DNA of 64,000 nt from Nitrospirota bacterium (GTDB lineage: Bacteria > Nitrospirota > JACRHJ01), in the NCBI GenBank assembly GCA_963733375.1, contig CAVTDB010000001.1, positions 32,268-96,267 of the forward strand, in the 5' to 3' direction. Positions 26,370 through 49,100 of the stretch are shown piece by piece. The translations under genes were made by a program, and so were the position numbers. The notes below the pieces were generated by a model. It was not told the DNA's origin. It did not search any database and worked only from the letters and a program-made list of their open reading frames with translations. The stretch's first letter is position 1. Each line of letters starts with the position of its first letter.

Positions 26370-27119
26370 TTACCTGGCCCTGACCACCCATGCCGGATAT
26401 CCCTCGCGGGCCAGCTTATCAGCCAGTTCCATCGCCGGTTTCCTCTCCCGGAAACTACCCGCCTGCACCCGGTTATATATTACTCCCTTTATCTGTGCCT
26501 TCGATATCCTGACGTCCTGATAACCGAGTTCCAGCCCCAGTCTCAAGTGTTCCGCGTTCTCCGGGTCCGAGAATGCCCCGACCTGCACCCTGTAAAATCC
26601 CTTTCCCGAGACGTCACCTATCTTTACTTCCTTGATATATGAGATGTCGCGTCCTATCTCCTGGACGATTACCGGCCCGGTGTCCAGCCGGCCTATAGCG
26701 CGCGACGCTCCGCGCGAGATGTCCAAATCCACGTCCAATACAAACGGCCCGCGGTCGTTTACCGTCACTACGCACTCTTTCCCGGTCTTCGGGTGCTTGA
26801 TTTTCAGTTTGGTTCCAAAGGGATACGTCTTGTGCGCGCATGTCAGGCCGTCCTGGTCGAATACCTCTCCGGACGCCGTGCGATGCCCTTGAAAGCCCGG
26901 CCCGTACCAGGAGGCAATCGCCTGGTAAACCGTACCGGCGGGCGGGGGCGGTTTGCCCGGGCCGGTATCCGTCAGGGGCATCCCGTTCCTGTCCACCTTC
27001 GGGAGCGGGCGGTGCTTTATCATTGGCGATTGGGCTTCCCTTTCCGGGGCGTGCGCGCAGGCGGAGAGAATAAAAAAACAGAGCAGGGTTATCGACAGCT
27101 TTTTATGGAAGTCCGGCAT
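26370..27119 (-). CDS. rlpA: septal ring lytic transglycosylase RlpA family protein with C-terminal SPOR domain
   Basis: Lipoprotein-like signal ending in C. DPBB region (ASWYG..TASGE..TAAHKT-like, VTVNDRGPF). SPOR-like repeat YRVQVGAF..NRVQAGSF. Confidence 0.88.
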   Translation of the reverse strand: MPDFHKKLSITLLCFFILSACAHAPEREAQSPMIKHRPLPKVDRNGMPLTDTGPGKPPPPAGTVYQAIASWYGPGFQGHRTASGEVFDQDGLTCAHKTYPFGTKLKIKHPKTGKECVVTVNDRGPFVLDVDLDISRGASRAIGRLDTGPVIVQEIGRDISYIKEVKIGDVSGKGFYRVQVGAFSDPENAEHLRLGLELGYQDVRISKAQIKGVIYNRVQAGSFRERKPAMELADKLAREGYPAWVVRAR

Positions 27120-27627
27120 GACAGGATTTTATAGGTGTGAAGGGGCTATGTCAACGGGTTTGCTCCCTTGGCCTCCTTCCTTATAACCCTCCCCACCTGC
27201 GGGGGGGGGGTCGACCGTTACTCGGAGAGGGCCGGGAGAGGGTGATTTTTAGCTTAATATAAATAAAATACGTATATACTTCATCAGGATATGAAAAATT
27301 GGTGAATGCTGGAAAAAATTATGCTTAACTTTCAAATACTTGCAAAACCAGAACCCGGATTTTCCGGCCCGCCGAAATTAACCGAAAATAGGCCGTAACT
27401 CTTTCTAATATATGATTAAAAATCCCTCCGGCGCCTGAAAAACACATGTCTCAAAAACCGCCCCCAGACCCCCAAAATCGGCCTGTAAGGCCGTAAAAAT
27501 GGCGTAAATTCATACCCCGATAAAAAAACGACGAATAAGTCATTTATATGTGAATAGGGGTAAATTAACGATGAGTTGGAACGCTCGAGCAGGAAGGGTT
27601 ATTAAGAGCAGATGGAAATCGGGGATT

Positions 27628-28059
27628 TTATTTACTGATGAGCTTCTTGTACAACTTTTTCATTTCTTCATATTGTTTTGGATTACTTTGTTGTTCCGGT
27701 GTTGCTGCAGTAATGAAAATACCTTCGTAATATCCAACAAAAGCGTCATTATAAAATTTCGCCAGTTTTTTTGAGAGAAGATTATTATTCACGAGAAACG
27801 CAAAATATTCCAGAGTATTGAAAAAAAGACTTAACCATTTTCTTGTTTCAGCGATATCTTTTTTGCTTTGATATTCTTTATAATATTTTTCTTCTAAATT
27901 TCTGATTTCTAAGAAGAAGGATTGAAAGGTAGCAATATTTCTAGAACGGGAATTTTCTCTTATGGCAAGATAATTAAAAAACAAGGCACTTACTGCTGCA
28001 AGGGCAGCTACTACTGCCCCAATCATACTCCAAAATTCGACGCTTAGTTTAGCAATCAT
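27628..28059 (-). CDS. hypothetical N-terminally membrane-anchored helical protein
   Basis: 143 aa AT-rich ORF with one N-terminal hydrophobic helix (IGAVVAALAAVSALFF). Its ATG directly abuts the stop of the upstream ORF. Confidence 0.6.
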   Translation of the reverse strand: MIAKLSVEFWSMIGAVVAALAAVSALFFNYLAIRENSRSRNIATFQSFFLEIRNLEEKYYKEYQSKKDIAETRKWLSLFFNTLEYFAFLVNNNLLSKKLAKFYNDAFVGYYEGIFITAATPEQQSNPKQYEEMKKLYKKLISK

Positions 28060-28329
28060 TTATTCATTAGGCGAACTATCAGTTGGGGCAGACGCGATAG
28101 GAGTAGCGGCAACGGGTGAAGAAGCAGGAGAAGACGTAGTTGCAGAATCGCCTGAGGATTGTACAAATTCACTGACTAAGTTGCTGTGATTAAAACTTCT
28201 TGTTATATCCGAACTATTATCTCTACCCATGGCTCCGCCTCCTATTTTAATTTGCTTGACCAATTCACTGTAATTATAAGAACCAACTACTCTTTCTAAA
28301 TCGTCTTCTTTTTCTTCACTCATATCCAC
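28060..28329 (-). CDS. hypothetical small acidic / Ser-Pro-rich protein
   Basis: 89 aa ORF with AAGGGTGG upstream of the ATG. It is contiguous with ORF 27628-28059. Confidence 0.5.
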   Translation of the reverse strand: MDMSEEKEDDLERVVGSYNYSELVKQIKIGGGAMGRDNSSDITRSFNHSNLVSEFVQSSGDSATTSSPASSPVAATPIASAPTDSSPNE

Positions 28330-28384
28330 CCTTTTGCTTTGGGTTTAAGATAAAGGGGCCCGAAACTAAGATTACAACAAGTCA

Positions 28385-28420
28385 TAACTACCACATATTG
28401 ACGTAGCTTGTCAATAGTTT
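28385..28420 (-). promoter_or_regulatory. putative sigma70-like promoter with an overlapping palindrome for the 28329-27628 cassette
   Basis: The minus strand reads TTGACAagctacGTCAAtatgtggTAGTTA. The -35 hexamer lies inside the perfect inverted repeat TTGAC-N7-GTCAA. Confidence 0.4.
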
Positions 28421-28487
28421 TCTATATGCTGTATATTTAGAGTTAGCAGAAAATCAGATACACTTCCTAATTTTAGCATGGAACTAT

Positions 28488-28570
28488 GCGTGCAGGTCGG
28501 ATTCCCAGATATGGCAGTTCTTGCAGAACCATTTGGGGACTTCGATGGCGATAACGCATCCGGCAAGTTT
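28488..28570 (-). pseudogene. truncated paralogous copy of the C-terminal half of the Zn-ribbon ORF at 29742-30082
   Basis: Minus-strand translation is ..LAGCVIAIEVPKWFCKNCHIWESDLHA*. There is no N-terminal half, and the DUF1579 terminator sits where it would be. Confidence 0.55.
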
Positions 28571-28582
28571 ATTGTGAAGGGT

Positions 28583-28616
28583 AAAATAAGGGACACAATC
28601 CCGTAAGATGTGTCCC
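28583..28616 (-). terminator. rho-independent terminator after the DUF1579 gene
   Basis: GGGACACA-N11-TGTGTCCC hairpin followed by TTATTTT on the minus strand. Confidence 0.7.
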
Positions 28617-28640
28617 TGAATTTCCGGAGTCAATTTGAGG

Positions 28641-29210
28641 TCAGGCTGCTTTGCTTGGCGCTGCTTTCGCCGCCTCCTTCCTGGTGACCGTCATCTCCAT
28701 CTCCTTCGTTTCCTTACCGCCCTCAGGAGTGATGTACATTTCATACCCCAGGGTGTTGTCATCCAGGAATTTGGTTACGCTGCGCCAACGCAGATGCCCT
28801 CTGACGGGGTCGTCAAGGGTGCTCTCCTGCGTAAGAGTCTTGCCGTCGGCGCTGGCGGTACCCTCAAAATAATTAATACCGGTGCTCATATTGTCGTACC
28901 AGATCGATACGACCTTCCCGGTCTGGTTGTCGTACCCGATGAGGTTGATGCCGTTGAACGTCTCTCCCATCATATCGCCGGTATATTCCTGCTGCAGGTA
29001 ACGTCCTCCGAGTATCATCTTCTGCACGCAGGTGCCTGTGGTTTCCATCGGGGGCTTATTGGGGTCCATCCGCGCTTTGGTCCTGGTAACCCAGCTCCCG
29101 GTCAGCTTCTCCAGCAGCTTGTGGACGGGGCCCGGAGTTGCCAGCTTCTTGTACGTTTCCATCATCGACTCCATGTCCATCTTGCCCTCTTTTTTCTTCT
29201 CTTTATCCAT
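28641..29210 (-). CDS. DUF1579 domain-containing protein
   Basis: 189 aa ORF. MDMESMMETYKKLATPGPVHKLLEKLTGSW..GINLIGYDN..WYDNMSTGINYFEGT matches my recollection of the DUF1579 pattern. Confidence 0.75.
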   Translation of the reverse strand: MDKEKKKEGKMDMESMMETYKKLATPGPVHKLLEKLTGSWVTRTKARMDPNKPPMETTGTCVQKMILGGRYLQQEYTGDMMGETFNGINLIGYDNQTGKVVSIWYDNMSTGINYFEGTASADGKTLTQESTLDDPVRGHLRWRSVTKFLDDNTLGYEMYITPEGGKETKEMEMTVTRKEAAKAAPSKAA

Positions 29211-29390
29211 CTCGAACCTCCCTGCATTTAGCGTTACTTAATAATATAATTATACCTGAAGATTGCCTGCGTCGCAGGCATCGGCATGTATGCATTGGCT
29301 TGGCAAAAGATTTGCAATCGTCAGGAAATGTTCTAAGTGAGATATTTGCGAGAAAATCCATGGCATGGTATGTTTTCAGTAGGAGACGCC

Positions 29391-30014
29391 ATGAAAAAAA
29401 ATTTACTATCGTTTGTTGCAATAGTAGTTGTAATAGGCGCTTTATTGGCAATAAGCTACGCGGCCCCTGCCGCTGCTGACGATGTGCGTCCTACCGTAAT
29501 AAATTGTACCTGCAAGGTCTGGAATACCTATGTAGATGATTGTGCGAACTGGGTCGAGAGAGGCATGAGAAGGGACGGCGTTAATCCGACCCAATTTTAT
29601 TATGAAGCGTCTAAGGTTGTGGCCAAAAGGGAAAAGGAAGCATATATAAACGGATTAATTAACGCTTACCGCGCAGTTTACTCTGTAACAAAGAAGGAAA
29701 TGTATAATTTACCCTACTGCGTCGGTCAGTATGAATCTGCATTAGATGCATATGCCAACGACCCTAAAAATGCCGACGTCCCTATTTCGGCAGCCATCAT
29801 AATCGTTAATAACAATATAGGCGGAAGTAAGGTTTCTATTGGGAGAATCCATTCTGGCCGGGCTAGCGTGCAGGTCGGATTCCCAGATATTAAGACGGCA
29901 GGCTTTGCAGAACCATTTCGGGACCTCGACGGAGAGGACGCATCCGGCCATTATGCATTCGCCCCGCTTCTCCGCATCGCGGTACTTCTCGTAATCCCCG
30001 GCTTGCACCGGTAG
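29391..30014 (+). CDS. hypothetical secreted Cys-containing protein (3' end uncertain)
   Basis: AGGAG lies 5 nt before the ATG. The signal peptide is MKKNLLSFVAIVVVIGALLAISYAAPAAA. The last ~150 nt are antisense to a region that appears to be under minus-strand codon constraint. Confidence 0.45.
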   Translation: MKKNLLSFVAIVVVIGALLAISYAAPAAADDVRPTVINCTCKVWNTYVDDCANWVERGMRRDGVNPTQFYYEASKVVAKREKEAYINGLINAYRAVYSVTKKEMYNLPYCVGQYESALDAYANDPKNADVPISAAIIIVNNNIGGSKVSIGRIHSGRASVQVGFPDIKTAGFAEPFRDLDGEDASGHYAFAPLLRIAVLLVIPGLHR

Positions 30015-34391: not shown

Positions 34392-35040
34392 ATGCAATTC
34401 TTCAGATGCCAGATATGCGGCGACGTTTACATCGGGACTCATGGCCCCGTCCAACTGCCCGTACTGCGGCGCAAAGGCCAAATATCTGGTGCCGCCCGAG
34501 CAGTGGGTCGATGAAAACCTTACCATAACGAAGCTGTCGGACGTTTCCCGGCAAAACCTTGAGAGGGCGCTCCAGCTCGAAGTGGACAATACCCCTTTCT
34601 ACCGCGACGCCTCCGCGAAAGCATCGAGCCTGAAGCTCCAGGGGGTGTTCAAGGGGCTGGCGAAGGTGGAGAACGAACATGCTACCGTGGTCCGGAAGAT
34701 TTTGAAATGCGAGTTCCCGCCGCCGGACCCCGCGCACTCCACCGCGACGGGTGACGACGCCGAAAACCTCCGGGTTGCGCACGAAAGGGAGATAGAGGCA
34801 TCGAAATTTTACGCCCAGTCTTCCGTGCAGGCAAACGAGCCGCGGGTAAAAAAGGTATTCCTCGCGCTCGCGGAGATAGAGGCGGACCATATAAAGCTGG
34901 AACGGGAGTTGATGCAGCCCTCACCCCTGCCCCTCATGCGGGCATCCAGGTTAAAACCAAGCCCTGGGTCCCAAGTAGCATGGGGCGAGGGATTAAGAAA
35001 ATTTGTCATTCTGAGCGGAACGAAGAATCTGCCCCTATGA
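34392..35040 (+). CDS. rubrerythrin/ferritin-like protein with N-terminal rubredoxin-like Zn ribbon, frameshifted near 34440
   Basis: GGAGG then ATG gives MQFFRCQICGDVYIG. After the shift it reads APSNCPYCGAKA and then ExxH-type helices (VENEHATV, EIEADHIKLE). The 3' end runs into a repeat element. Confidence 0.65.
34921..35036. repeat. GC-rich palindromic intergenic (REP/MITE-like) element
   Basis: TCACCCCTGCCCC...GGGGCGAGGGATTAAG inverted arms plus a tgtcattctgagcggaacgaagaatc tail. Related GAGGG(T/A)GAT motifs occur at 13030-13060, 24088-24140, 27183-27250 and 33255-33290. Confidence 0.55.
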
Positions 35041-36424
35041 AACTATCCTGTTTTAAGGCTTACGACGTCCGGGGCAAGGTGCCGGAAGAGCTTGACGAGC
35101 TGCTGGCATACCATATTGGCCGGGCGCTGGCACAGGTGTTGAATCCGGGGGCCGTGGTGGTCGGGCGGGACGTGCGGCTCTCAAGCCCGGAGCTGGCGGC
35201 AATCTCTCTCCCGAGGGGCTTATGGATTCCGGCATGGACGTGCTGGATATCGGGCTATGCGGGACGGAGCAGGTCTATTTCTCCACCGCCCACCTTGGCG
35301 CGCGGCGGGCGTCCGGCGGAGTGATGGTCACCGGAAGCCACAACCCCAAAAGCGATAACGGGATGAAGTTCGTCAGCGAGCAGTCGAAGCCAATCAGCGG
35401 AGACACCGGACTTAAAGAGATAGAGGCGCTCGCCGCGAATGGGACGTTCAGGGATGCGGCGCGGCGAGGCGAGATTAAATACCGTCGACACCTCCGAAGC
35501 ATATATAAGCCAGCTTTTATCATACATCGAGCCTTTCTCTCTCCCGCCTTTCAAGGTCCTGGTAAATCCCGGCAACGGCTGTGCGGGCCCGGTAATCGAC
35601 ATGCTGGAGAGGCGGCTGCGGATTCCCCATCTCCCCGTCCCTCCGCTAGGGCGAGGGATACAATTCGTAAAAATATTCAGCGAGCCGGACGGGAGTTTCC
35701 CGCACGGCATCCCGAACCCGCTCCTGCCGGAGAACCGTGACGCGACCGCAAGAGCGGTAATCGAATCCGGCGCGGATATAGGCGTGGCGTGGGACGGGGA
35801 CTTCGACCGCTGTTTTTTGTTCGACGAGAAAGGGAAATTCATCGAGGGATATTATATCGTGGGACTGTTAGCTAGGGCGATGCTGGCAAAACATCCCGGC
35901 GCAAAAATCATCCACGACCCGCGCCTGACATGGAACACCATGACATCGTAAAATCCGCAGGCGGGATTCCCGTCATGAGTAAGACGGGCCACGCGTTCAT
36001 AAAGGAACGGATGCGCGCCGAGGATGCGGTTTACGGCGGCGAGATGTCCGCCCATCATTATTTCAAGGATTTCGCGTACTGCGACAGCGGGATGATACCG
36101 TGGTTACTGGTGCTTGAGCAGATGGCGAAAAAGGGTAAAACCCTTTCCGAGCTTGTCGTGGAGCGGGAGAAATTATATCCGGTTAGCGGAGAGATAAACC
36201 GCGAGATAGCCGACCCGGCGGCGGCTCTTGAAAAAGTGGAAGAGCATTACGCGCCCGGCGCGGTTTCCATAGACCATACCGACGGCGTCAGCATCGAGTT
36301 CCGGGAGTGGCGCTTCAACCTCCGCATGTCCAATACCGAGCCGCTGGTGAGGCTGAATGTGGAGGCGCGAGGGGACAGGAAATTAATGGAGCAGAAGACG
36401 GAAGAGCTGCTTGAATTTCTCTAA
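35037..36424 (+). CDS. manB: phosphomannomutase / phosphoglucomutase, at least three frameshifts (four ORF pieces)
   Basis: [24 protein letters not shown] (active-site Ser loop), [10 protein letters not shown] and [10 protein letters not shown] are colinear across ORFs 34980, 35222, 35439 and 35930. Confidence 0.88.
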
Positions 36425-36437
36425 CGAGGTAAACTAA

Positions 36438-36638
36438 ATGAAGAAATTCATATTATCTTTTGCATCAGCAGGATTTATATTGCCACTTATATTGCTTTCT
36501 ATTTCTGTTAGTATTCCAAATGCTCCTATCATTTTCGACAAAATTAAACTCGCCTTGTGGCCGAGTTCCTCGCAACTGACGGTTATATATACCTGGTCCT
36601 TCAGTGATCTAATAAATCTCTTTACATCAATAGGTTAA
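36438..36638 (+). CDS. hypothetical small membrane protein
   Basis: 66 aa AT-rich ORF with a hydrophobic N-terminus. AGGTAA lies just upstream of the ATG. Confidence 0.35.
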   Translation: MKKFILSFASAGFILPLILLSISVSIPNAPIIFDKIKLALWPSSSQLTVIYTWSFSDLINLFTSIG

Positions 36639-36786
36639 TGTTTTAATTTATTCAATAATAGGATTATTCTTTTGGTTGGGCTTGCATAAAAACCGTTTGA
36701 TTCTTTTAATCTTAATCCCATCGATTTTCTTGCTTGAATACAAATGGCTTCTTTTCATCTTCGGGCCACGATTGTTTATAAATTAA

Positions 36787-36893
36787 GGAAGAGCGTTACG
36801 CCCCCGGCGCGGTCTCCATCGACCATACCGACGGCGTCAGCATCGAGTTCCCCGACGGGCGCTTCAACCTCCGCATGGCCAATACCGAGCCGC
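36787..36893 (+). pseudogene. duplicated, diverged fragment of the manB 3' end
   Basis: It aligns with 36238-36344 with about 9 mismatches over 107 nt. In the manB frame it translates [36 protein letters not shown]. Confidence 0.7.
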
Positions 36894-36901
36894 GATAAAT
36901 C

Positions 36902-37837
36902 TCAAAAATAATTATTTGGTAATTTAATTTCTATTTCTTTTTTCCTTATTTGTTTTCCGTAATTTATTAATAAATCCATTCGTGCTTTAGCCAAAGCTAT
37001 ATCCTTTGCAAAAATTTCGAATAAATCATTCCAGTATTTATATGAACCTCGCGAAAAGAAATTAGCTTGGTCGCAATGAACAACAAGAGTGCCGAGCAGT
37101 TCATTCTTATCAGATAATACTGGATATATAATCGACGATTTGATGCGTTCTTTTTGATTATTATATAATTCTTTATAATCGTTGTTCGTTGAAGTATTTT
37201 CTATTATTTTCATACTTGGTTTTGATTCCTCATAAATTTTCGCCGTAATGGTATTATTATAAACATCGGGGTTATCTTTTCTTAATATCATACTGCGGGG
37301 TGCGCGTCCTTCTCTGTTTGCGCAAGCAGGAATTGTAATTTTTCCATCAATATACGATTTTGTCATAAACGTAACTTCAAAATCGATTCGATTTTGAAAT
37401 CTGCTAGATTTTCCAAAAGCCGCTTCAAAAGTATTATAAGCAGCTTCAACAGTATTTTGAATATATTCTATTGAAGTACTGAATGCTTCAATAAATTTTT
37501 CTTTATTTATATTCTCAATTTTCAAAGAAGATAATCTGTGTGATAACAACCTGTCTAAATATGTGTAGGCATGTAAAACAACGGCTTGTAATTCTTCTTC
37601 TTCATGATGCAATCTATCGCGGATGAAAATGATATATCTAGTAATAGCAACTAAAAAAGCAAATAATACAGTAAAGGTTATGGCATGCACCCATATAGGT
37701 TTTCCTACTTTAGCAATTTCGCCTATCCAAAAAGATAAATAAGCCGCAAAATAAAAGGGGACGGCAGTAATAAGACCGCCAATAAATATACGAAGGAAAA
37801 CTGGTAGAGCATCATATTTTTTTATGAGTGATTCCAT
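36902..37837 (-). CDS. hypothetical 2TM protein with a C-terminal GAF-like domain (tentative)
   Basis: 311 aa ORF with two hydrophobic helices (residues ~12-38 and ~48-72). The C-terminal SSIIYPVLSDKNELLGTLVVHCDQANFF..FEIFAKDIALAKARMDL resembles the last strands and helix of GAF domains. Confidence 0.6.
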   Translation of the reverse strand: MESLIKKYDALPVFLRIFIGGLITAVPFYFAAYLSFWIGEIAKVGKPIWVHAITFTVLFAFLVAITRYIIFIRDRLHHEEEELQAVVLHAYTYLDRLLSHRLSSLKIENINKEKFIEAFSTSIEYIQNTVEAAYNTFEAAFGKSSRFQNRIDFEVTFMTKSYIDGKITIPACANREGRAPRSMILRKDNPDVYNNTITAKIYEESKPSMKIIENTSTNNDYKELYNNQKERIKSSIIYPVLSDKNELLGTLVVHCDQANFFSRGSYKYWNDLFEIFAKDIALAKARMDLLINYGKQIRKKEIEIKLPNNYF

Positions 37838-39128
37838 CTTCCACCTTTGTTAAAGGGATATACTTTTCAATAAATTTTATAGTAGTCGGTATTAATATGT
37901 AATTCGGAATTTCCTTTATTGTGCTACATTCAATTATCAGAATGTTTTTCATTTGATTATTTATTCCTTCAGCAATAAACGAATTTTTTATTTCTTTACA
38001 CTTAATAATAATGCACGGCTTTTTTAATGAATATGCTAATCCAAATTCATAGTGAGAACCATGACTTTCTCCCAAAATTGATATAAATAAATCACAAGCA
38101 GCAACGTGCGCGGTACATTTTTCGACAACCTCCTTCGAAGTTAGTTCTTTATTTCCCCATTTATTAACATCTCTGTGTGGCAAAATATTGTCTATCCCTA
38201 CCTTATTTAATTTATTTCCAATTTCATTTAACATTGTTCTATATTCACCACGTAAAATTTTGCCATGTGCGGAAGATGCTTTAATTAATATTTCCTCTTT
38301 ATCTGACTCCTTTTCTATTGCAACAGCTGTAAAGGGCGCAGCTATATACGCTAATGGATAAGTCTTAGCTTCTGTTTTTTTACTTTCTGATTTTATAATT
38401 TCAGGATATTTTCTTTCTCCTGCTGTTTTTTCTTTTGCTGCATAAATAGGACTTAAAATTTTTATTTTTTCTTCTTCAACCGAATTTTCAAATAAATTAA
38501 TCTGTTCTGGAATGCTAACAGATCTGCGCAAAATAATTAATATTTCTTCCAGTATCGATTTTTGTATAGTTGAATTTCGAAAATCTACCACCTCACTATT
38601 TATTCTATAAAACGGTCCCAATTTATACGAGTTAATCCATTTATTATATAATTCATTTATATCGTCTAAATGGTTAGGAGGATAAAGTTTTTGAAAATCT
38701 CTTCCTCTAGTTGCTATTCTTTTCTTAATTATGTCTAACGGGCAATCACAATATATGATTAAATCAGGATTCGGTAATTCTAATATAAAATGATCAGCTA
38801 AGATTTTATAATTTTCATATGATCTATCATTTATATATCCATTCCGATAGAAATATTCCGCAAATATATAAATGTCTTCATAAAAAGACCTATCTAATAT
38901 AAAATCATACCTATTTGTCATTTCTTTGATTTCTATAGCTTTTTGACATAAAAATGATATTTGGGTTTCGAAAGCCCATCGTTTAGGATTATCAAAAAGA
39001 TCATTAAGATATTTCAGGCCTAATGGGCTTTCAGGTAAATAATTCCAACCCATATTACTTGACAAAGCACGGGCTAAAGTAGTTTTACCGCTACCCATAT
39101 TCCCAGCTATAGCAATAAACCAAGTCAT
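37812..39128 (-). CDS. fusion protein: deoxynucleoside kinase domain + nucleoside 2-deoxyribosyltransferase/DNPH1-like domain
   Basis: 438 aa ORF. It has the P-loop AGNMGSGKTT (res 8-16), LDRSFYEDIYIFA (an ERS-like motif) and the RIATRGRDFQ LID motif. The C-terminal half has YIAAPF (261-266) and ESHGSHYEFGLAYSLKKPCIII (354-375), typical of the NDT/Rcl fold. Confidence 0.65.
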   Translation of the reverse strand: MTWFIAIAGNMGSGKTTLARALSSNMGWNYLPESPLGLKYLNDLFDNPKRWAFETQISFLCQKAIEIKEMTNRYDFILDRSFYEDIYIFAEYFYRNGYINDRSYENYKILADHFILELPNPDLIIYCDCPLDIIKKRIATRGRDFQKLYPPNHLDDINELYNKWINSYKLGPFYRINSEVVDFRNSTIQKSILEEILIILRRSVSIPEQINLFENSVEEEKIKILSPIYAAKEKTAGERKYPEIIKSESKKTEAKTYPLAYIAAPFTAVAIEKESDKEEILIKASSAHGKILRGEYRTMLNEIGNKLNKVGIDNILPHRDVNKWGNKELTSKEVVEKCTAHVAACDLFISILGESHGSHYEFGLAYSLKKPCIIIKCKEIKNSFIAEGINNQMKNILIIECSTIKEIPNYILIPTTIKFIEKYIPLTKVEDGITHKKI

Positions 39129-39141
39129 AAAAAAATCCTTT

Positions 39142-40575
39142 CTATAAAACCGCGCTCATCAGCCGCGCCATATTCTCAAGGAACCTCTCAAGGCGCGCGC
39201 GCTTCTTGTAGCGCGTCAGGTTCAGTTCCATCGAGTTTTCCAGGTCTTCGAAGAAATGTTCGTTGAGGTGCTCCGCGACGGCCTTGGAGTAGCAGACCGC
39301 GCAGACCTCGAAGTTCAGCCGGAAGCTCCGCACGTCCATGTTCGCCGTCCCGACGATTCCGAGCTCGCCGTCCGCGCTCATGGTCTTTGAGTGTATAAAT
39401 CCTTTTTGATACTGGTATATCTTGCAGCCGACCTCCAGAAGCTCCTTGAAATACGACATGCTGGCGTACTTGATAATCTTCCGGTCGAAGTTCATGGGGA
39501 CGAGGAGCCGCACGTCCACACCCCGGAGCGCCGCCGCGACAAGCGCGGTCTGCACGGACTCGTCCGGGACGAAGTACGGCGTCGTGATATACAGTTTTTC
39601 CTGCGCGGATGTAATGGCGGTGAAATAGAGCTTCGCAACCTGGTCTATCTGCCTGTCCGGGCCGGACGGCACGACCTGGACTATCTCGCCCTGCGCGTCA
39701 TCCGGCCAGTCCTTTACCAGGTACTCAGCCGCGAGCATCTCGTTCGTGACGTAGAACCAGTCCTCCGCGAATATGAGCTGGAGATGGCTTGCCGCCGGGC
39801 CGGTAAGTTTTATGTTCGAGTCCCGCCAGTACCCCAGCTGCGGGTCGCGGCCCAGGTACTCGTCCCCGATATTTATCCCGCCGGTGTACGCGGTCTTTCC
39901 GTCCACCACCAATATTTTTCTGTGGTTACGGAAGTTCGCGTACGCGCCGCGCAGACGCGAGAAATGCACCGGCCTGTACTCCCGCACCTGGCCTCCCGCC
40001 TCTACTAGAGGCTCGAAAAATTTAAGCTTCGTGGACCAGGAGCCTATGTCGTCGTACATGAGCCGGACCTCCACGCCCGCCAATGCCCGCTCGATCAACA
40101 TATCCCGGAACTTTATCCCCGTCTCGTCCGGGCGGAATATGTAGTACATGGCGTGGATGTATTTTTCGGCCTTCGCCATCGCCTCGAACATATCGGGATA
40201 AGATTCCTTCGCGTCGTTCTGCACCTCGACTATGTTCCCGGTGGTCGGGGGCGGGCCGGGAAAGCTGTAGGCGAGGCGCATCAGGCCCCGGTGCCGCCTG
40301 ATTATCGCGGTGAGAGATTTGCTGAAAGTCTTGTCGAACTTCAGCTTTTGCCTGACGTCGCCGAAAGCCTCGCTTATCGCCTTGAGGAGACGGATGCGCA
40401 TATTCACCTTGCGTCTTCCGAAGACGAAATATGCGCCCAGCCCTATGAACGGGAGGAGCACCATCGCGAGCAGCCATGCCATGGTGGCGGCTGGACTCTG
40501 GTGCTCATAGATGATGAAAACGCAGGAAAGGATAATACCCGCGGCCAGGACGGACAGGATGAGGAGTGTCAACAT
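39142..40575 (-). CDS. cls: cardiolipin synthase (PLD superfamily)
   Basis: 477 aa ORF with N-terminal TMs and two HKD motifs (NHRKILVVDGKTAYTGGINIGDEY; IHSKTMSADGELGIVGTANMDVRS). Confidence 0.93.
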   Translation of the reverse strand: MLTLLILSVLAAGIILSCVFIIYEHQSPAATMAWLLAMVLLPFIGLGAYFVFGRRKVNMRIRLLKAISEAFGDVRQKLKFDKTFSKSLTAIIRRHRGLMRLAYSFPGPPPTTGNIVEVQNDAKESYPDMFEAMAKAEKYIHAMYYIFRPDETGIKFRDMLIERALAGVEVRLMYDDIGSWSTKLKFFEPLVEAGGQVREYRPVHFSRLRGAYANFRNHRKILVVDGKTAYTGGINIGDEYLGRDPQLGYWRDSNIKLTGPAASHLQLIFAEDWFYVTNEMLAAEYLVKDWPDDAQGEIVQVVPSGPDRQIDQVAKLYFTAITSAQEKLYITTPYFVPDESVQTALVAAALRGVDVRLLVPMNFDRKIIKYASMSYFKELLEVGCKIYQYQKGFIHSKTMSADGELGIVGTANMDVRSFRLNFEVCAVCYSKAVAEHLNEHFFEDLENSMELNLTRYKKRARLERFLENMARLMSAVL

Positions 40576-46260: not shown

Positions 46261-46592
46261 GCTATTCCAACTTTCTTGATCGTCTTGACCTGAAGCACCG
46301 TATATTTCCCGCGCTCGACGCCGGTCTTCTCTTTCAGCGTCCCGGTTACAACGGCCCGCTGTCCTTTATACTGCCGCATATTCGTGTCGCCGGGGTCCAG
46401 CTCTATCTGCTTGAATATCCTTCCGCCCACCGCCGTCTCGAAATCCAGGACCAGCGCCCAGCCCGTCGTCTCTCCGCCGATGGCCATCACCTGCCGCACC
46501 GTGCCGGAAAGTTGCAGCTCTTCGGGCGCCTTGTCCGCGAAAGCGGCAGTGGCAAAAAGGGCAATACACATAAACGTAATTAAATATTTCAT
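46257..46592 (-). CDS. hypothetical small secreted protein
   Basis: 111 aa ORF with signal peptide MKYLITFMCIALFATAAFA. Its ATG overlaps the radA stop. Confidence 0.55.
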   Translation of the reverse strand: MKYLITFMCIALFATAAFADKAPEELQLSGTVRQVMAIGGETTGWALVLDFETAVGGRIFKQIELDPGDTNMRQYKGQRAVVTGTLKEKTGVERGKYTVLQVKTIKKVGIA

Positions 46593-47956
46593 TGCAGCAC
46601 CGCCTCCAGGGCCTCGTCGGCCTGCTCGACGCCAATAAGCTCAATCCCCTTCACCTTGTGCATTTTCGAGAGGTTCGCCGCGGGCAGGACGCACCGCTCA
46701 AACCCAAGCTTCGCCGCCTCGTACGCGCGCATCTCCGCCTGGCCTATCGCCCGCACTTCTCCGCCCAGGCCCACCTCGCCCATCACCACGGTCCGCGCGG
46801 ATACCGGCACGTCCTTGAACGCCGAAGCCACAGCCGCCATCAGCCCCAGGTCCACGGACGGCTCGTCCACCTTCAGGCCGCCGACCACGTTCACGTACAC
46901 GTCCTGCCCCATCAGGTGCAGGCCGACACGCTTTTCCAGCACCGCAAGCAGAAGCGTAAAGCGCCCGAAGTCCACGCCGATTGCCGTGCGGCGGGGGTTG
47001 CCGAACGTCGTGGGCGTAACCAGCGCCTGAAGCTCCGCCATGATGGGCCGCGTCCCCTCCACCGTGGACACCACGACAGAGCCGGTCACGTCGCTCCTTC
47101 GCTCCGCCAGGAAAATCTCCGAGGGGTTCTTCACCTCTTTCAGGCCCGCGCCCTTCATCTCGAACACGCCTATTTCATTGGTCGAGCCGAAGCGGTTTTT
47201 AACCGCCCTGAGTATCCTGAACGCATGGCCACGGTCGCCTTCGAAGTACAGCACCGTGTCCACCATATGCTCCAGCACGCGCGGCCCGGCGATGGAGCCG
47301 TCCTTTGTCACGTGCCCCACGATGAAGACCGGCGTCCCCGTCTTCTTTGCGAACGCGACCAGTTGCCCCGCGCCCTCGCGCACCTGGGATATGCTGCCCG
47401 GCGCGGACGAGATGCTTGCCGTGTAAAGCGTCTGGACGGAGTCCACCACGAATGCGTCCGGCTTCACGTCCGCCGCGTGGCGCAAAATGTCCTCAAGGTT
47501 GTTCTCCGCAAGGACGTATAGCCCGTCCGAGCTGCAACCGAGCCTTTCGCCCCGGAGCTTTATCTGGCGCGGGGACTCCTCGCCGGAGCAGTACAGCACG
47601 CGCTTCCCGCGCCTCGCCAGCTCGTCCATCGCCTGTAGCATCAGCGTAGATTTCCCGATGCCGGGGTCGCCTCCGACCAGCACGACGGAGCCTTTCACGA
47701 TGCCGCCGCCAAGCACGCGGTCAAGCTCTCCGATGCCGACGGAATCCCGGTGCTCGCCCTCGCTATGTATCTCTCCGATTGGCGTGGGGCGGCCCTTCGC
47801 GGTGTCGATATACTGCGCCGCTATCCCGCGCTGTGGCGGGGCTTCGCGCTCCTCGACCATCGTGTTCCATCCGCCGCACTCCGGGCACTTCCCCATCCAT
47901 TTCGGGGACATCGAGCCGCAGGCCTGACACGCGAAAAATGTTTTTTCTTTAGGCAT
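46589..47956 (-). CDS. radA: DNA repair protein RadA/Sms
   Basis: 455 aa ORF with a CxxC..CxxC zinc finger, the GDPGIGKST Walker A, KNRFG and a Lon-like C-terminus. Confidence 0.96.
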   Translation of the reverse strand: MPKEKTFFACQACGSMSPKWMGKCPECGGWNTMVEEREAPPQRGIAAQYIDTAKGRPTPIGEIHSEGEHRDSVGIGELDRVLGGGIVKGSVVLVGGDPGIGKSTLMLQAMDELARRGKRVLYCSGEESPRQIKLRGERLGCSSDGLYVLAENNLEDILRHAADVKPDAFVVDSVQTLYTASISSAPGSISQVREGAGQLVAFAKKTGTPVFIVGHVTKDGSIAGPRVLEHMVDTVLYFEGDRGHAFRILRAVKNRFGSTNEIGVFEMKGAGLKEVKNPSEIFLAERRSDVTGSVVVSTVEGTRPIMAELQALVTPTTFGNPRRTAIGVDFGRFTLLLAVLEKRVGLHLMGQDVYVNVVGGLKVDEPSVDLGLMAAVASAFKDVPVSARTVVMGEVGLGGEVRAIGQAEMRAYEAAKLGFERCVLPAANLSKMHKVKGIELIGVEQADEALEAVLQ

Positions 47957-47959
47957 TAT

Positions 47960-49100
47960 GTTTTCCTATAGCTTGTCGCCATTTCTTTAATCATTTCTTG
48001 AAATACTTCAAATTCTGTATCGAAATCTATTATATATTTAAAATCATGTCTTTATTGGCAAACAACATTAAGCTTCATTATCTCATTCTGGTAAATTTTT
48101 ATGCATTCGCAATTTCCGCTACATTTTATAACAATACTAATGGAAACCATCCTCAGTAATTAGATCTATATTCATGAACTGCCAAAGCTACGATGAAATG
48201 AAAACTGTGAATCTAATAAATGTAATTACTTATAGATTTTTTAACTACAGTCTATCAAGTGTTCTAATGGGTTTTTCATGAAATGACCATTCGGATATCT
48301 TTATCATAAAATGAAAGCCTAGATCAGTTAAATGCATACATAACTGGTCAACTTCACAAATGTCGGAAACATAAATTTATTTATTATAGCAGATGATCGA
48401 CATAATCTTCTTCGTACATATAGATTCTACAAATAGGAGATTTACAAGTTCGATTAATATGTTAACTACTCGATTAATTAATAAACGAATCTTATTAATT
48501 TACTCAATGGAAAGTTTTTAAAAAATCATCGATATTAATTAAGGAATTCAGTGGACAAAAGATTTTTAAAAACAAGGAATTTGTGATATGATACTATTTC
48601 TTAAATTAATCTGATTTCATTGATGAGCTTTAATTCTTTTATCAGATTTTTCAAATATATTTTGAAAATCGCATTCTAATTTTCACAATGTAAATTTCGC
48701 ATTTTCATTACATTGCCAATATTATCATTATTATCTTTCATGCTTCGTCTCGTATTATATAACATTTTAAGTAATGGAGCAAAATATATTTAAATACTTA
48801 AAATTAATTAAGTAAGATACTTTTTCTAGATGCATTTACTGCTTATATGACTAGAATCGAAAATGATCATAAATATAACTGGCTAAGTGCTGTTTTTATC
48901 ATGAATTTACCAAATAGTCGAATAGTATGATTTCAATTATATAACTTATAAATCAAATGTAACCTATTGGGCATAAATCTTCAATTAGTTCTAATTGCTA
49001 ACACTATCATCTAAATTGATACTTATTGATTTGACTTTACTGCTCGATTTTTTCTCTTCACTTAAAATTGATAATCTATTAGACATTATTTTCCTTAATT
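47960..49100. other. AT-rich block 3: 1.15 kb without any substantial ORF
   Basis: A hand count of 48001-48060 gives 13/60 G+C, against 38/60 for 47401-47460. Within 47972-48994 the track lists no ORF of 60 aa or more on either strand. Confidence 0.7.

Follow-up and report, generated by a model that had tools for sequence, protein, structure and literature searches.

A mobile two-gene family pairing a predicted deoxynucleoside kinase–nucleotide N-glycosidase fusion with a transmembrane GAF protein: a candidate defence system in a Nitrospirota genome

What is a compact, AT-rich gene pair doing between two ordinary chromosomal genes, cls and manB, of a Nitrospirota bacterium, and could it serve in immunity? 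The pair lies in a 64,000-nucleotide (nt) stretch of contig CAVTDB010000001.1 (assembly GCA_963733375.1, positions 32,268 to 96,267 of the forward strand), which we analysed at its full length and refer to as the window. A first-pass annotation made from the sequence alone had described two overlapping minus-strand open reading frames (ORFs), here ORF A and ORF B, and had proposed that they form an undescribed nucleotide-centred system, possibly directed against phages. Both ORFs, and all the motifs that were quoted for them, are in place. Our analysis reveals that they belong to a rare, apparently undescribed mobile two-gene family, which is a credible new defence-system candidate.

37812..39128, minus strand: ORF A, predicted deoxynucleoside-kinase/nucleotide N-glycosidase fusion, 438 amino acids (aa); AlphaFold2 model with pLDDT 88 and pTM 0.79.
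36902..37837, minus strand: ORF B, protein with two transmembrane (TM) helices, a stalk and a GAF-fold domain, 311 aa; AlphaFold2 model with pLDDT 94; its start overlaps the end of ORF A by 26 nt.

Open frames of this length are improbable at the local base composition (chance of ~6e-18 for the 438 codons of ORF A and ~6e-13 for the 311 codons of ORF B), and hundreds of homologues were found for ORF A and likewise for ORF B; the two are therefore real genes. Neither of the two exact sequences was matched to a database record. Searching from ORF B, we found 30 genome loci in at least 12 phyla with a sporadic distribution, and an ORF A relative with both of its halves was adjacent in 28/28 loci with room for it. 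Searching from ORF A-type fusions, ORF B was present in 11/11 loci, bringing the adjacency to 39/39 loci where it is visible. As a negative control we used 75 loci of plain deoxynucleoside kinases (dNKs), which made up most of what the ORF A profile matched in metagenomes, by way of the P-loop pattern; an ORF B relative occurred at none of them (0/75). The spacing between the genes ranges from -29 to +15 nt in 21 co-directional loci, and the linkage survives rearrangement, since the genes are convergent in four further loci. The two families have also diverged together: in a mirror-tree comparison, their pairwise identities correlate with r=0.90, a value reached by 0/2000 permutations. Moreover, the GC content of the pair is below that of its flanks in 26/26 loci, with a mean difference of 0.10.

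These observations establish ORF A and ORF B as an obligately paired, translationally coupled, mobile unit. ORF B and its relatives form a rare, well-delimited and homogeneous family, with 212 cluster representatives among 1.84 billion proteins in an exhaustive hidden Markov model search, nearly all of ~300-320 aa. A more mundane view, also raised by the first-pass annotation, held that a plain salvage enzyme might merely lie next to an unrelated membrane protein; the 39/39 adjacency and the co-divergence led us to reject it. The checks of co-conservation and genomic setting that the first-pass annotation had proposed thus came out in its favour: the pair is co-conserved, and it sits at varying sites of foreign composition instead of within a conserved metabolic operon.

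The family varies around this two-gene core, of which the window locus is the minimal form. A subset of the homologues of ORF A, ~500-550 aa long (e.g. P0025, P0072, P0100 and P0107; loci L002, L003, L035 and L119), has an N-terminal XRE-type helix-turn-helix (HTH) domain (PF01381/PF13560) fused to the kinase, which suggests autoregulation of the operon. Only one other neighbour family is conserved, a gene of ~310-350 aa that abuts ORF A in ~14/34 loci (~40%). Its product is a PP-loop ATP-pyrophosphatase nearest the TtcA/TtuA [4Fe-4S] pyrimidine-2-thiolases, with SGGKDS and CxxC motifs; it matches TtcA at 3e-25, well short of the equivalog cut-off, and TtuA at 2e-6. In most loci this gene (L004/L005, L007, L010-L012, L014, L015, L017, L024, L026, L029, L033 and L036) runs in the same direction as the pair, and L017, L026 and L029 have it in divergent orientation. 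The window lacks it, and PADLOC has no match for it. It hints that pyrimidine thiolation or adenylation chemistry may be tied to the module. In some Bacillota, a standalone dNK gene of 186-193 aa follows the ORF B homologue (L020:10552-11112, L022:10561-11124 and L028:3412-3993; PF01712 E=7e-17).

The history of the locus in the window can be read from two close relatives with an empty site (L117 and L118). Their cls genes are the nearest to that of the window, at 83-84% identity, and as both are named Nitrospirota they place the host in this phylum. The window and both relatives share the gene order RACo, cls, then convergent manB, rubrerythrin, acyltransferase, radical-SAM and FtsX. In the relatives, cls and manB are convergent and separated by 41 and 66 nt, respectively. 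When the junctions are aligned, homology is lost ~5 nt past the cls stop and regained at the manB stop, which places the foreign block at 36425..39141 (2.7 kb, ~0.30 GC). This block is a foreign, horizontally acquired insertion. The first-pass annotation had described a block of ~2.2 kb and ~30% G+C in a ~60% backbone, holding nothing besides the two ORFs. The low GC content (0.27-0.34 for the pair) and the position between manB and cls hold, but the rest of the window averages ~0.55, and the block is longer and also contains a partial copy of manB and a filler with a short ORF.

36425..39141, no strand assigned: whole foreign insertion, from the manB stop at 36424 to the cls stop at 39142; GC ~0.30 against 0.55.
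36425..36786, no strand assigned: AT-rich filler (~360 bp), holding a 66-aa hydrophobic ORF at 36438..36638 (plus strand).
36787..36893, plus strand: duplicate of part of the 3' region of manB, 107 nt, 92% identical to 36238-36344.
39129..39141, minus strand: 13-nt spacer separating the cls stop from the start of ORF A; contains the Shine-Dalgarno-like motif AAAGGA but no terminator.

The intergenic hairpin of the relatives is absent in the window, and in its place stands AAAGGATTTTTTTATG, in which the Shine-Dalgarno-like motif is followed by the ORF A start. Because cls and ORF A lie on the same strand, 13 nt apart and with no terminator between them, transcription of the pair by read-through from cls is plausible. 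The loss of the convergent terminator could also expose manB to antisense read-through. No relatives were found for the filler or its 66-aa ORF, a Rfam search of the window gave no matches, and the 2.7-kb block contains neither an integrase nor a transposase.

The manB fragment stops where the 3' end of ORF B begins, and positions 36238-36344 and 36787-36893 form a 107-nt direct repeat, with the ORF A/ORF B pair outside the segment that the repeats bound. Could they be the att sites of an integrative element that brought in the pair? We rejected this, because the pair is not enclosed by the repeats and no integrase is present; the repeat is a recombination scar, not a simple att pair. The manB gene itself (~35040-36424) shows three reading-frame switches (near 35200, 35460 and 35950) compared with the intact 451-453-aa genes of the relatives, while its neighbours cls and RACo, like ORF A and ORF B, are intact. 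The switches mean either that manB is degenerating into a pseudogene beside the insertion or that the assembly contains local errors.

What do the two genes encode? The first-pass annotation assigned ORF A a P-loop dNK half and a second half of the nucleoside 2-deoxyribosyltransferase (NDT)/DNPH1 type, and the modelled protein indeed divides into two domains joined by a weakly ordered linker.

38514..39128, minus strand: ORF A kinase domain, aa 1-205; matched to PF01712 and to dNKs of the PDB by sequence and fold.
38367..38513, minus strand: interdomain linker, aa 206-254; pLDDT 51-72, poorly conserved alignment columns.
37854..38366, minus strand: ORF A C-terminal domain, aa 255-425, MilB/BlsM-like N-glycosidase of the NDT superfamily by family profile against the PDB, by PF05014 and by a Hokovirus NDT.

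The kinase assignment was borne out, with Foldseek TM values of 0.8-0.86. ORF A matches Pfam PF01712 at E=1.3e-38 (133 bits, cut-off 27), with aa 5-195 covering profile positions 1-197 of 203, and it matches dNKs in the PDB by sequence at 2.6e-16. In Foldseek comparisons, the kinase half aligns with 8puu, 2jas and 1j90 at E-values of 1e-11 to 1e-9 and TMt 0.79-0.86. When 55 relatives were aligned, K15, T17, Q56, D79, R80, E84, D85, R137 and R141 proved invariant or nearly so. Among these, K15 and T17 belong to the P-loop, D79-R80 to the [DE]-R-S motif and R137/R141 to the lid, and Q56 is base-binding. E33, which aligns with the 5'-OH-activating Glu (E52 of Dm-dNK, E53 of dCK), is present in the window protein and in 41/55 relatives. 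Judged by its sequence and its model, the N-terminal half of ORF A is a bona fide dNK.

The C-terminal half does belong to the NDT superfamily, but its closest relatives are MilB and BlsM rather than DNPH1 or plain NDTs. PF05014 scores 27.0 bits with full ORF A and 29.0 bits with the isolated window domain (cut-off 28.8), and it is matched by the C-terminal domains of 23/27 family members. A profile built from these 27 members and run against the PDB gave E-values of 4e-15 for MilB, 3e-13 for BlsM and 2e-12 for the cytidine monophosphate (CMP) N-glycosidase 4jen, while Rcl/DNPH1 (~6e-3 to 0.8) and true NDTs (0.03-0.2) were distant. We therefore reject DNPH1 as the closest clade, since MilB/BlsM score better by ~12 orders of magnitude; by sequence the half is closest to these CMP hydrolases. 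The Hokovirus NDT was matched structurally at TMt 0.66.

In the alignment of 55 sequences, Y261, F266, C338, S355, G357, H359 and E361 are invariant. The roles of the MilB residues (PMC4081090) were transferred to ORF A through the profile alignment.

E361: equivalent to MilB E103, the catalytic nucleophile; invariant (55/55), aligned with the position mutated in crystal form 4ohb (E103A).
S355/G357: equivalent to MilB S97/G99, 5'-phosphate contacts; invariant.
F266: equivalent to MilB F22, base stacking; invariant.
Y261: equivalent to MilB F17, ribo specificity; invariant Tyr.
T267: equivalent to MilB R23, hydroxymethyl reader; Arg replaced by Thr.
N322: equivalent to MilB E62, cytosine reader; Glu replaced by Asn.
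C338: equivalent to MilB D78, ribose/base contact (equivalent to Asp72 of NDT); invariant Cys (55/55), with a small alignment shift in the helix possible.

The mutation F17Y turns MilB towards deoxycytidine monophosphate (dCMP) (PMC4081090). As Y261 occupies this position, 2'-deoxy substrates are predicted for the ORF A glycosidase; hydroxymethyl specificity is not predicted, with T267 at the R23 position. The domain is probably a nucleotide N-glycosidase acting on deoxynucleoside monophosphates (dNMPs), and a glycosidase with such a preference would suit the deoxy-specific kinase to which it is fused. The residue changes specific to the family may alter the choice of base or the chemistry.

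ORF B has the two N-terminal TM helices and the GAF-like C-terminal region that the first-pass annotation had described.

37619..37810, minus strand: ORF B transmembrane hairpin, aa ~10-73, from the hydropathy of the protein and the family alignment; loop of ~4-8 residues.
36947..37390, minus strand: ORF B GAF-fold domain, aa ~150-297, from Foldseek and weak Pfam GAF/GAF_2 matches; the most conserved region of the family.

Hydropathy places the TM segments at residues ~10-39 and 44-73, separated by a very short loop, and this arrangement is kept across the family. The AlphaFold2 model consists of long helices at 13-44 and 49-104, a helical segment and an alpha/beta domain at 150-297. Foldseek assigns the GAF fold with probability 1.0 and E ~2e-5, with 228 PDB matches at E<=1e-3; single-domain GAFs align at TMt 0.6-0.75. 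Pfam GAF and GAF_2 remain sub-threshold for ORF B itself (16.5 bits against 28.6 and 15.9 against 22.4, respectively), and some of its relatives carry precomputed PF01590 or PF13185 matches. The ORF B family profile found no sequence match among solved structures, GAFs included, and nothing meaningful for ORF B was found in PADLOC, PHROGs or NCBIfam. A set of polar and Arg residues in the GAF region (T156, T159, S161, N174, R178, S182 and R186) is conserved in the family alignment and points to a possible pocket for an anionic ligand.

The company that the pair keeps in other genomes bears on its function. Clear defence genes lie beside it in 4/8 contexts annotated with Pfam.

L036: type IV restriction endonuclease-like gene, ThsB/SpbK-like TIR, GajA (1e-145), GajB (8e-90) and an AbiC-like gene.
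L035: AbiEi/AbiEii (AbiEii 2e-193) and a DrmMI/type IIG methyltransferase-restriction endonuclease.
L119: a type IIG enzyme of the same kind as in L035.
L034: type II restriction-modification.

L120 and L001 are ambiguous in this respect, and L002, L033 and the window show no defence neighbours. Among 148 neighbours within ~3 kb at 26 genome loci, a minority match PADLOC, namely type I methyltransferases, AriA/PtuA-like ATPases, mad2/3 and PDC-S01. The enrichment in defence neighbours is suggestive. In L036:6268-7044, L012:3646-4419 and L011:6969-7743, the PP-loop gene is immediately preceded by a ThsB/SpbK-like TIR gene, so that four genes run in one direction, each no more than 13 nt from the next; these loci belong to one Verrucomicrobiota lineage, and the TIR gene seems to be frameshifted in L011. 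In the HTH-fused variants L035 (10631-15289) and L119 (10609-14784), the pair is followed by a convergent gene for a 1391-1552-aa MmeI/Eco57I-type (DrmMI/type IIG-like) methyltransferase-restriction enzyme, with a large helicase-like gene alongside, and this may be a recurrent co-transferred island.

Does the pair belong to a system that already has a name? No named system with this architecture was matched in PADLOC or in the literature, as the first-pass annotation had supposed; large-screen supplementary tables and current DefenseFinder models aside, we found no published description of a dNK-glycosidase and 2TM-GAF pair. The individual parts do have known relatives. The C-terminal domain of ORF A shares with its best sequence relatives, the CMP and hydroxymethyl-CMP N-glycosidases MilB, BlsM and BcmB (PF05014), the motifs [FY]-x-[AG]-[AG]-P-F, S-x-G-x-H-x-E (for phosphate binding and catalysis) and H-R...W-G as well as the catalytic Glu. 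However, it is joined to a dNK, has a 2TM-GAF protein as its partner and is found outside an antibiotic gene cluster, and it has Tyr for Phe17, Thr for Arg23, Asn for Glu62 and an invariant Cys for Asp78 of MilB. With DNPH1/Rcl and true NDTs it has the superfamily and the catalytic Glu in common, and with DNPH1 the predicted dNMP substrate class, but the sequence relation is marginal and the DNPH1 label is a functional analogy. The kinase half resembles dAK, dGK, dCK and Dm-dNK in its full-length domain, fold, P-loop, DRS/ERS motif, Gln and lid Arg residues; it differs from them in always being fused to a glycosidase in the ORF A family and in carrying the catalytic-base Glu in 41/55 relatives.

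Ligand-gated TM effectors encoded beside the enzyme that makes the ligand are known from Pycsar (PycTM), CBASS (2TM-SAVED), Thoeris II (2TM-Macro) and the CARF-TM protein Cam1. Like them, ORF B has an N-terminal TM hairpin and a cytosolic fold of a small-molecule-binding kind, with no other output domain. Unlike in these proteins, its sensor is a GAF domain, the enzyme encoded beside it is neither a cyclase nor a CD-NTase or TIR, and membrane killing by ORF B is a prediction. We found no report in the literature of a GAF fold as the sensor of an immune TM effector. The AvcD-type defence dCTP deaminases likewise combine an N-terminal P-loop kinase-like domain with a C-terminal enzyme that destroys deoxynucleotides, in a mobile defence locus; their C-terminal fold is a deaminase rather than an N-glycosidase, their kinase belongs to another family, and their partner is a small RNA or none, not a 2TM-GAF protein.

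In ThsI of Thoeris type VIII and in BcTpr of B. cereus, defence involves a MilB-like domain that has the corresponding catalytic Glu. These proteins differ from ORF A in having TPR repeats and TIR dependence and in lacking a kinase and a GAF-TM partner, and a TIR gene occurs near the ORF A pair in one lineage only. An N-glycosidase of the NDT superfamily also serves as the anti-phage effector of type II retrons (Ec86/Eco1, Sen2; PMC7736814). No reverse transcriptase or msr/msd was present in the block, no retron was matched in Rfam or PADLOC, and no reverse transcriptase is conserved among the neighbours. Likewise, no CD-NTase, pyrimidine cyclase or TIR synthase was matched by Pfam or PADLOC in the 2.7-kb block. 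Membership in retron type II, CBASS, Pycsar, Thoeris or AvcD was rejected, as the defining components are absent. A further parallel is 'cluster 4' of the QueC family, in which a PP-loop enzyme occurs with a PfkB-PF05014 fusion and an HTH protein (bioRxiv 10.64898/2026.04.08.717055). There too a fusion of a kinase with an NDT-family domain lies near a PP-loop ATP-pyrophosphatase and an HTH, here represented by the TtcA-like gene and the XRE-HTH fusions. However, the kinase of cluster 4 is PfkB rather than a dNK, the PP-loop enzyme is QueC rather than TtcA/TtuA-like, and no 2TM-GAF partner has been reported.

Taken together, we tentatively favour, with somewhat less than even confidence, the reading that the pair is a horizontally acquired conflict module of the abortive-infection type directed against phages, in which a product of ORF A gates a GAF-2TM effector. 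The dNK half of cytosolic ORF A would phosphorylate a deoxynucleoside (dN + ATP -> dNMP). The MilB-like half would then act on a 5'-phosphorylated nucleotide, probably of the 2'-deoxy kind, cleaving its N-glycosidic bond to give the base and deoxyribose-5-phosphate, or a base-exchanged product. The substrates would be scarce in healthy cells and would rise when a phage degrades the host DNA or builds its own dNMP pool. The cytosolic GAF domain of ORF B would bind the product (or substrate) of ORF A, whereupon the N-terminal 2-TM hairpin would disrupt the membrane. A dNMP already serves as a danger signal in PUA-Cal-HAD, which is triggered by m6-dAMP.

A bolder version of this proposal, which we consider rather unlikely, specifies the signal as a catabolite alarm. 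Deoxyribose-5-phosphate, free base or a base-exchanged deoxynucleotide, derived from deoxynucleosides or dNMPs that the phage liberates, would be read by the GAF domain and open the 2-TM effector, with the TtcA-like thiolase as an optional modifier. Were this true, ORF B would be the first GAF-based immune receptor, and the messenger would be the first in defence to be made by degrading nucleotides rather than by cyclising or ligating them.

Several observations weigh against a product-gated anti-phage module. To our knowledge, a kinase combined with a hydrolase is no known signal synthase. The activating Glu at position 33 is absent from 14/55 relatives, and the replacement of Asp78 of MilB by an invariant Cys in ORF A means that the chemistry may differ. 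No sequence link leads from ORF B to any liganded GAF, and the frequent TtcA-like partner is not accounted for. The family has no match in PADLOC models, and ORF B relatives are absent from the viral contigs of IMG/VR, the phages of INPHARED and the plasmids of PLSDB. The case for defence made in the first-pass annotation now draws on the four contexts above, by guilt by association, but the neighbours in the window are housekeeping genes, as are most of the 148 neighbours elsewhere.

The same proteins could also act with their roles reversed. ORF A would then be the effector that starves the phage, through a kinase trap and DNPH1-like hydrolysis of deoxynucleoside and dNMP pools, and ORF B a membrane GAF sensor or regulator that restrains it until a cue arrives. 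Depletion of the nucleotide pool is an established defence logic to which the AvcD comparison also speaks, the 'CMP hydrolase' effector ThsI has been hypothesised to deplete nucleotides, and the catalytic residues of ORF A are all conserved. We nevertheless find this arrangement doubtful: a pure regulator needs no TM hairpin; apart from the GAF, ORF B offers no input domain, periplasmic or otherwise, and its TM loop is tiny; and hydrolysis of dNMPs spends an ATP on each deoxynucleoside and is a slow route next to that of deoxynucleoside triphosphatases. Alternatively, the MilB-like domain might resemble TIR enzymes in function, as an NAD(P)+/nucleotide glycosidase-cyclase or a base-exchange enzyme that makes a second messenger, which the kinase phosphorylates or gates and the GAF domain reads, in the manner of Thoeris without a TIR. 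The MilB-like domain of BcTir/Tpr, with its equivalent Glu, consumes NAD+ and yields a cyclic ADP-ribose isomer, base exchange through a covalent Glu intermediate is established in the NDT family, and the changes of Asp78 to Cys and of Glu62 to Asn point to a changed substrate or chemistry; weak matches to DUF4062 and SLOG models and the ThsB-like TIR gene ahead of the operon in L011, L012 and L036 go in the same direction. Yet a dNMP would fit the phosphate-binding S-x-G and the deoxy-predicting Tyr better than NAD+ would, only one lineage has the TIR neighbour, which seems frameshifted in L011, and the Thoeris models of PADLOC match neither ORF A nor ORF B, which leaves this explanation quite unlikely.

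A mobile module need not be immune at all. It could sanitise or detoxify the nucleotide pool or supply a modified nucleobase, converting toxic or modified deoxynucleosides into base and sugar phosphate with the help of the TtcA-like thiolase in ~40% of loci, while ORF B serves as a membrane sensor or uptake regulator. DNPH1 is a pool sanitiser, MilB and BlsM supply nucleoside-antibiotic pathways, the convergent neighbourhood of PP-loop enzyme, PfkB-PF05014 fusion and HTH has been interpreted as salvage, and both the PP-loop partner and the housekeeping genes in many contexts would fit. Rarity, phylum-hopping, uniformly low GC and random insertion sites are, however, atypical of metabolism, no transporter or other pathway gene is conserved nearby, and defence neighbours are frequent; we judge a metabolic role unlikely. 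Very unlikely, in our estimate, is a toxin-antitoxin-like addiction module in which ORF B is a membrane toxin and ORF A neutralises it or controls its ligand. The tight coupling of the two-gene operon, the optional XRE-HTH fused to ORF A and the mobile, self-contained character of the module are what such a pair would show, but the proteins are large and enzymatically elaborate for this purpose and have no similarity to known toxin-antitoxin families, and toxin-antitoxin and abortive-infection functions can in any case coexist.

Two other regions of the window are of unusual composition. Between radA (46589..47956, minus strand) and an alr-like gene (49147.., minus strand), ~1.15 kb at ~47960-49100 has 25% GC, no ORF >=70 aa and no Rfam match, and may be another foreign or decayed insertion. 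Positions 27000-30000 have a GC content of 0.40-0.48 and small ORFs, such as 27628..28059 (minus strand; 143 aa, with an N-terminal hydrophobic segment), and may be an accessory islet.

Because the module is compact, with two genes in 2.2 kb and clear targets for point mutation (K15, Y261, C338 and E361 of ORF A, and R178/R186 of the GAF domain), its function is directly testable. The locus is a clean natural case of a defence-like cassette in a convergent intergenic spacer of 41-66 nt. If the family is anti-phage, it would bring to nucleotide-centred immunity a new enzyme chemistry, in which a deoxynucleoside kinase is combined with N-glycosidic cleavage of dNMPs, and a new receptor fold, the GAF domain. 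It would also tie in with dNMPs from chromosome degradation as danger signals and with the MilB-like glycosidases of Thoeris-type systems.

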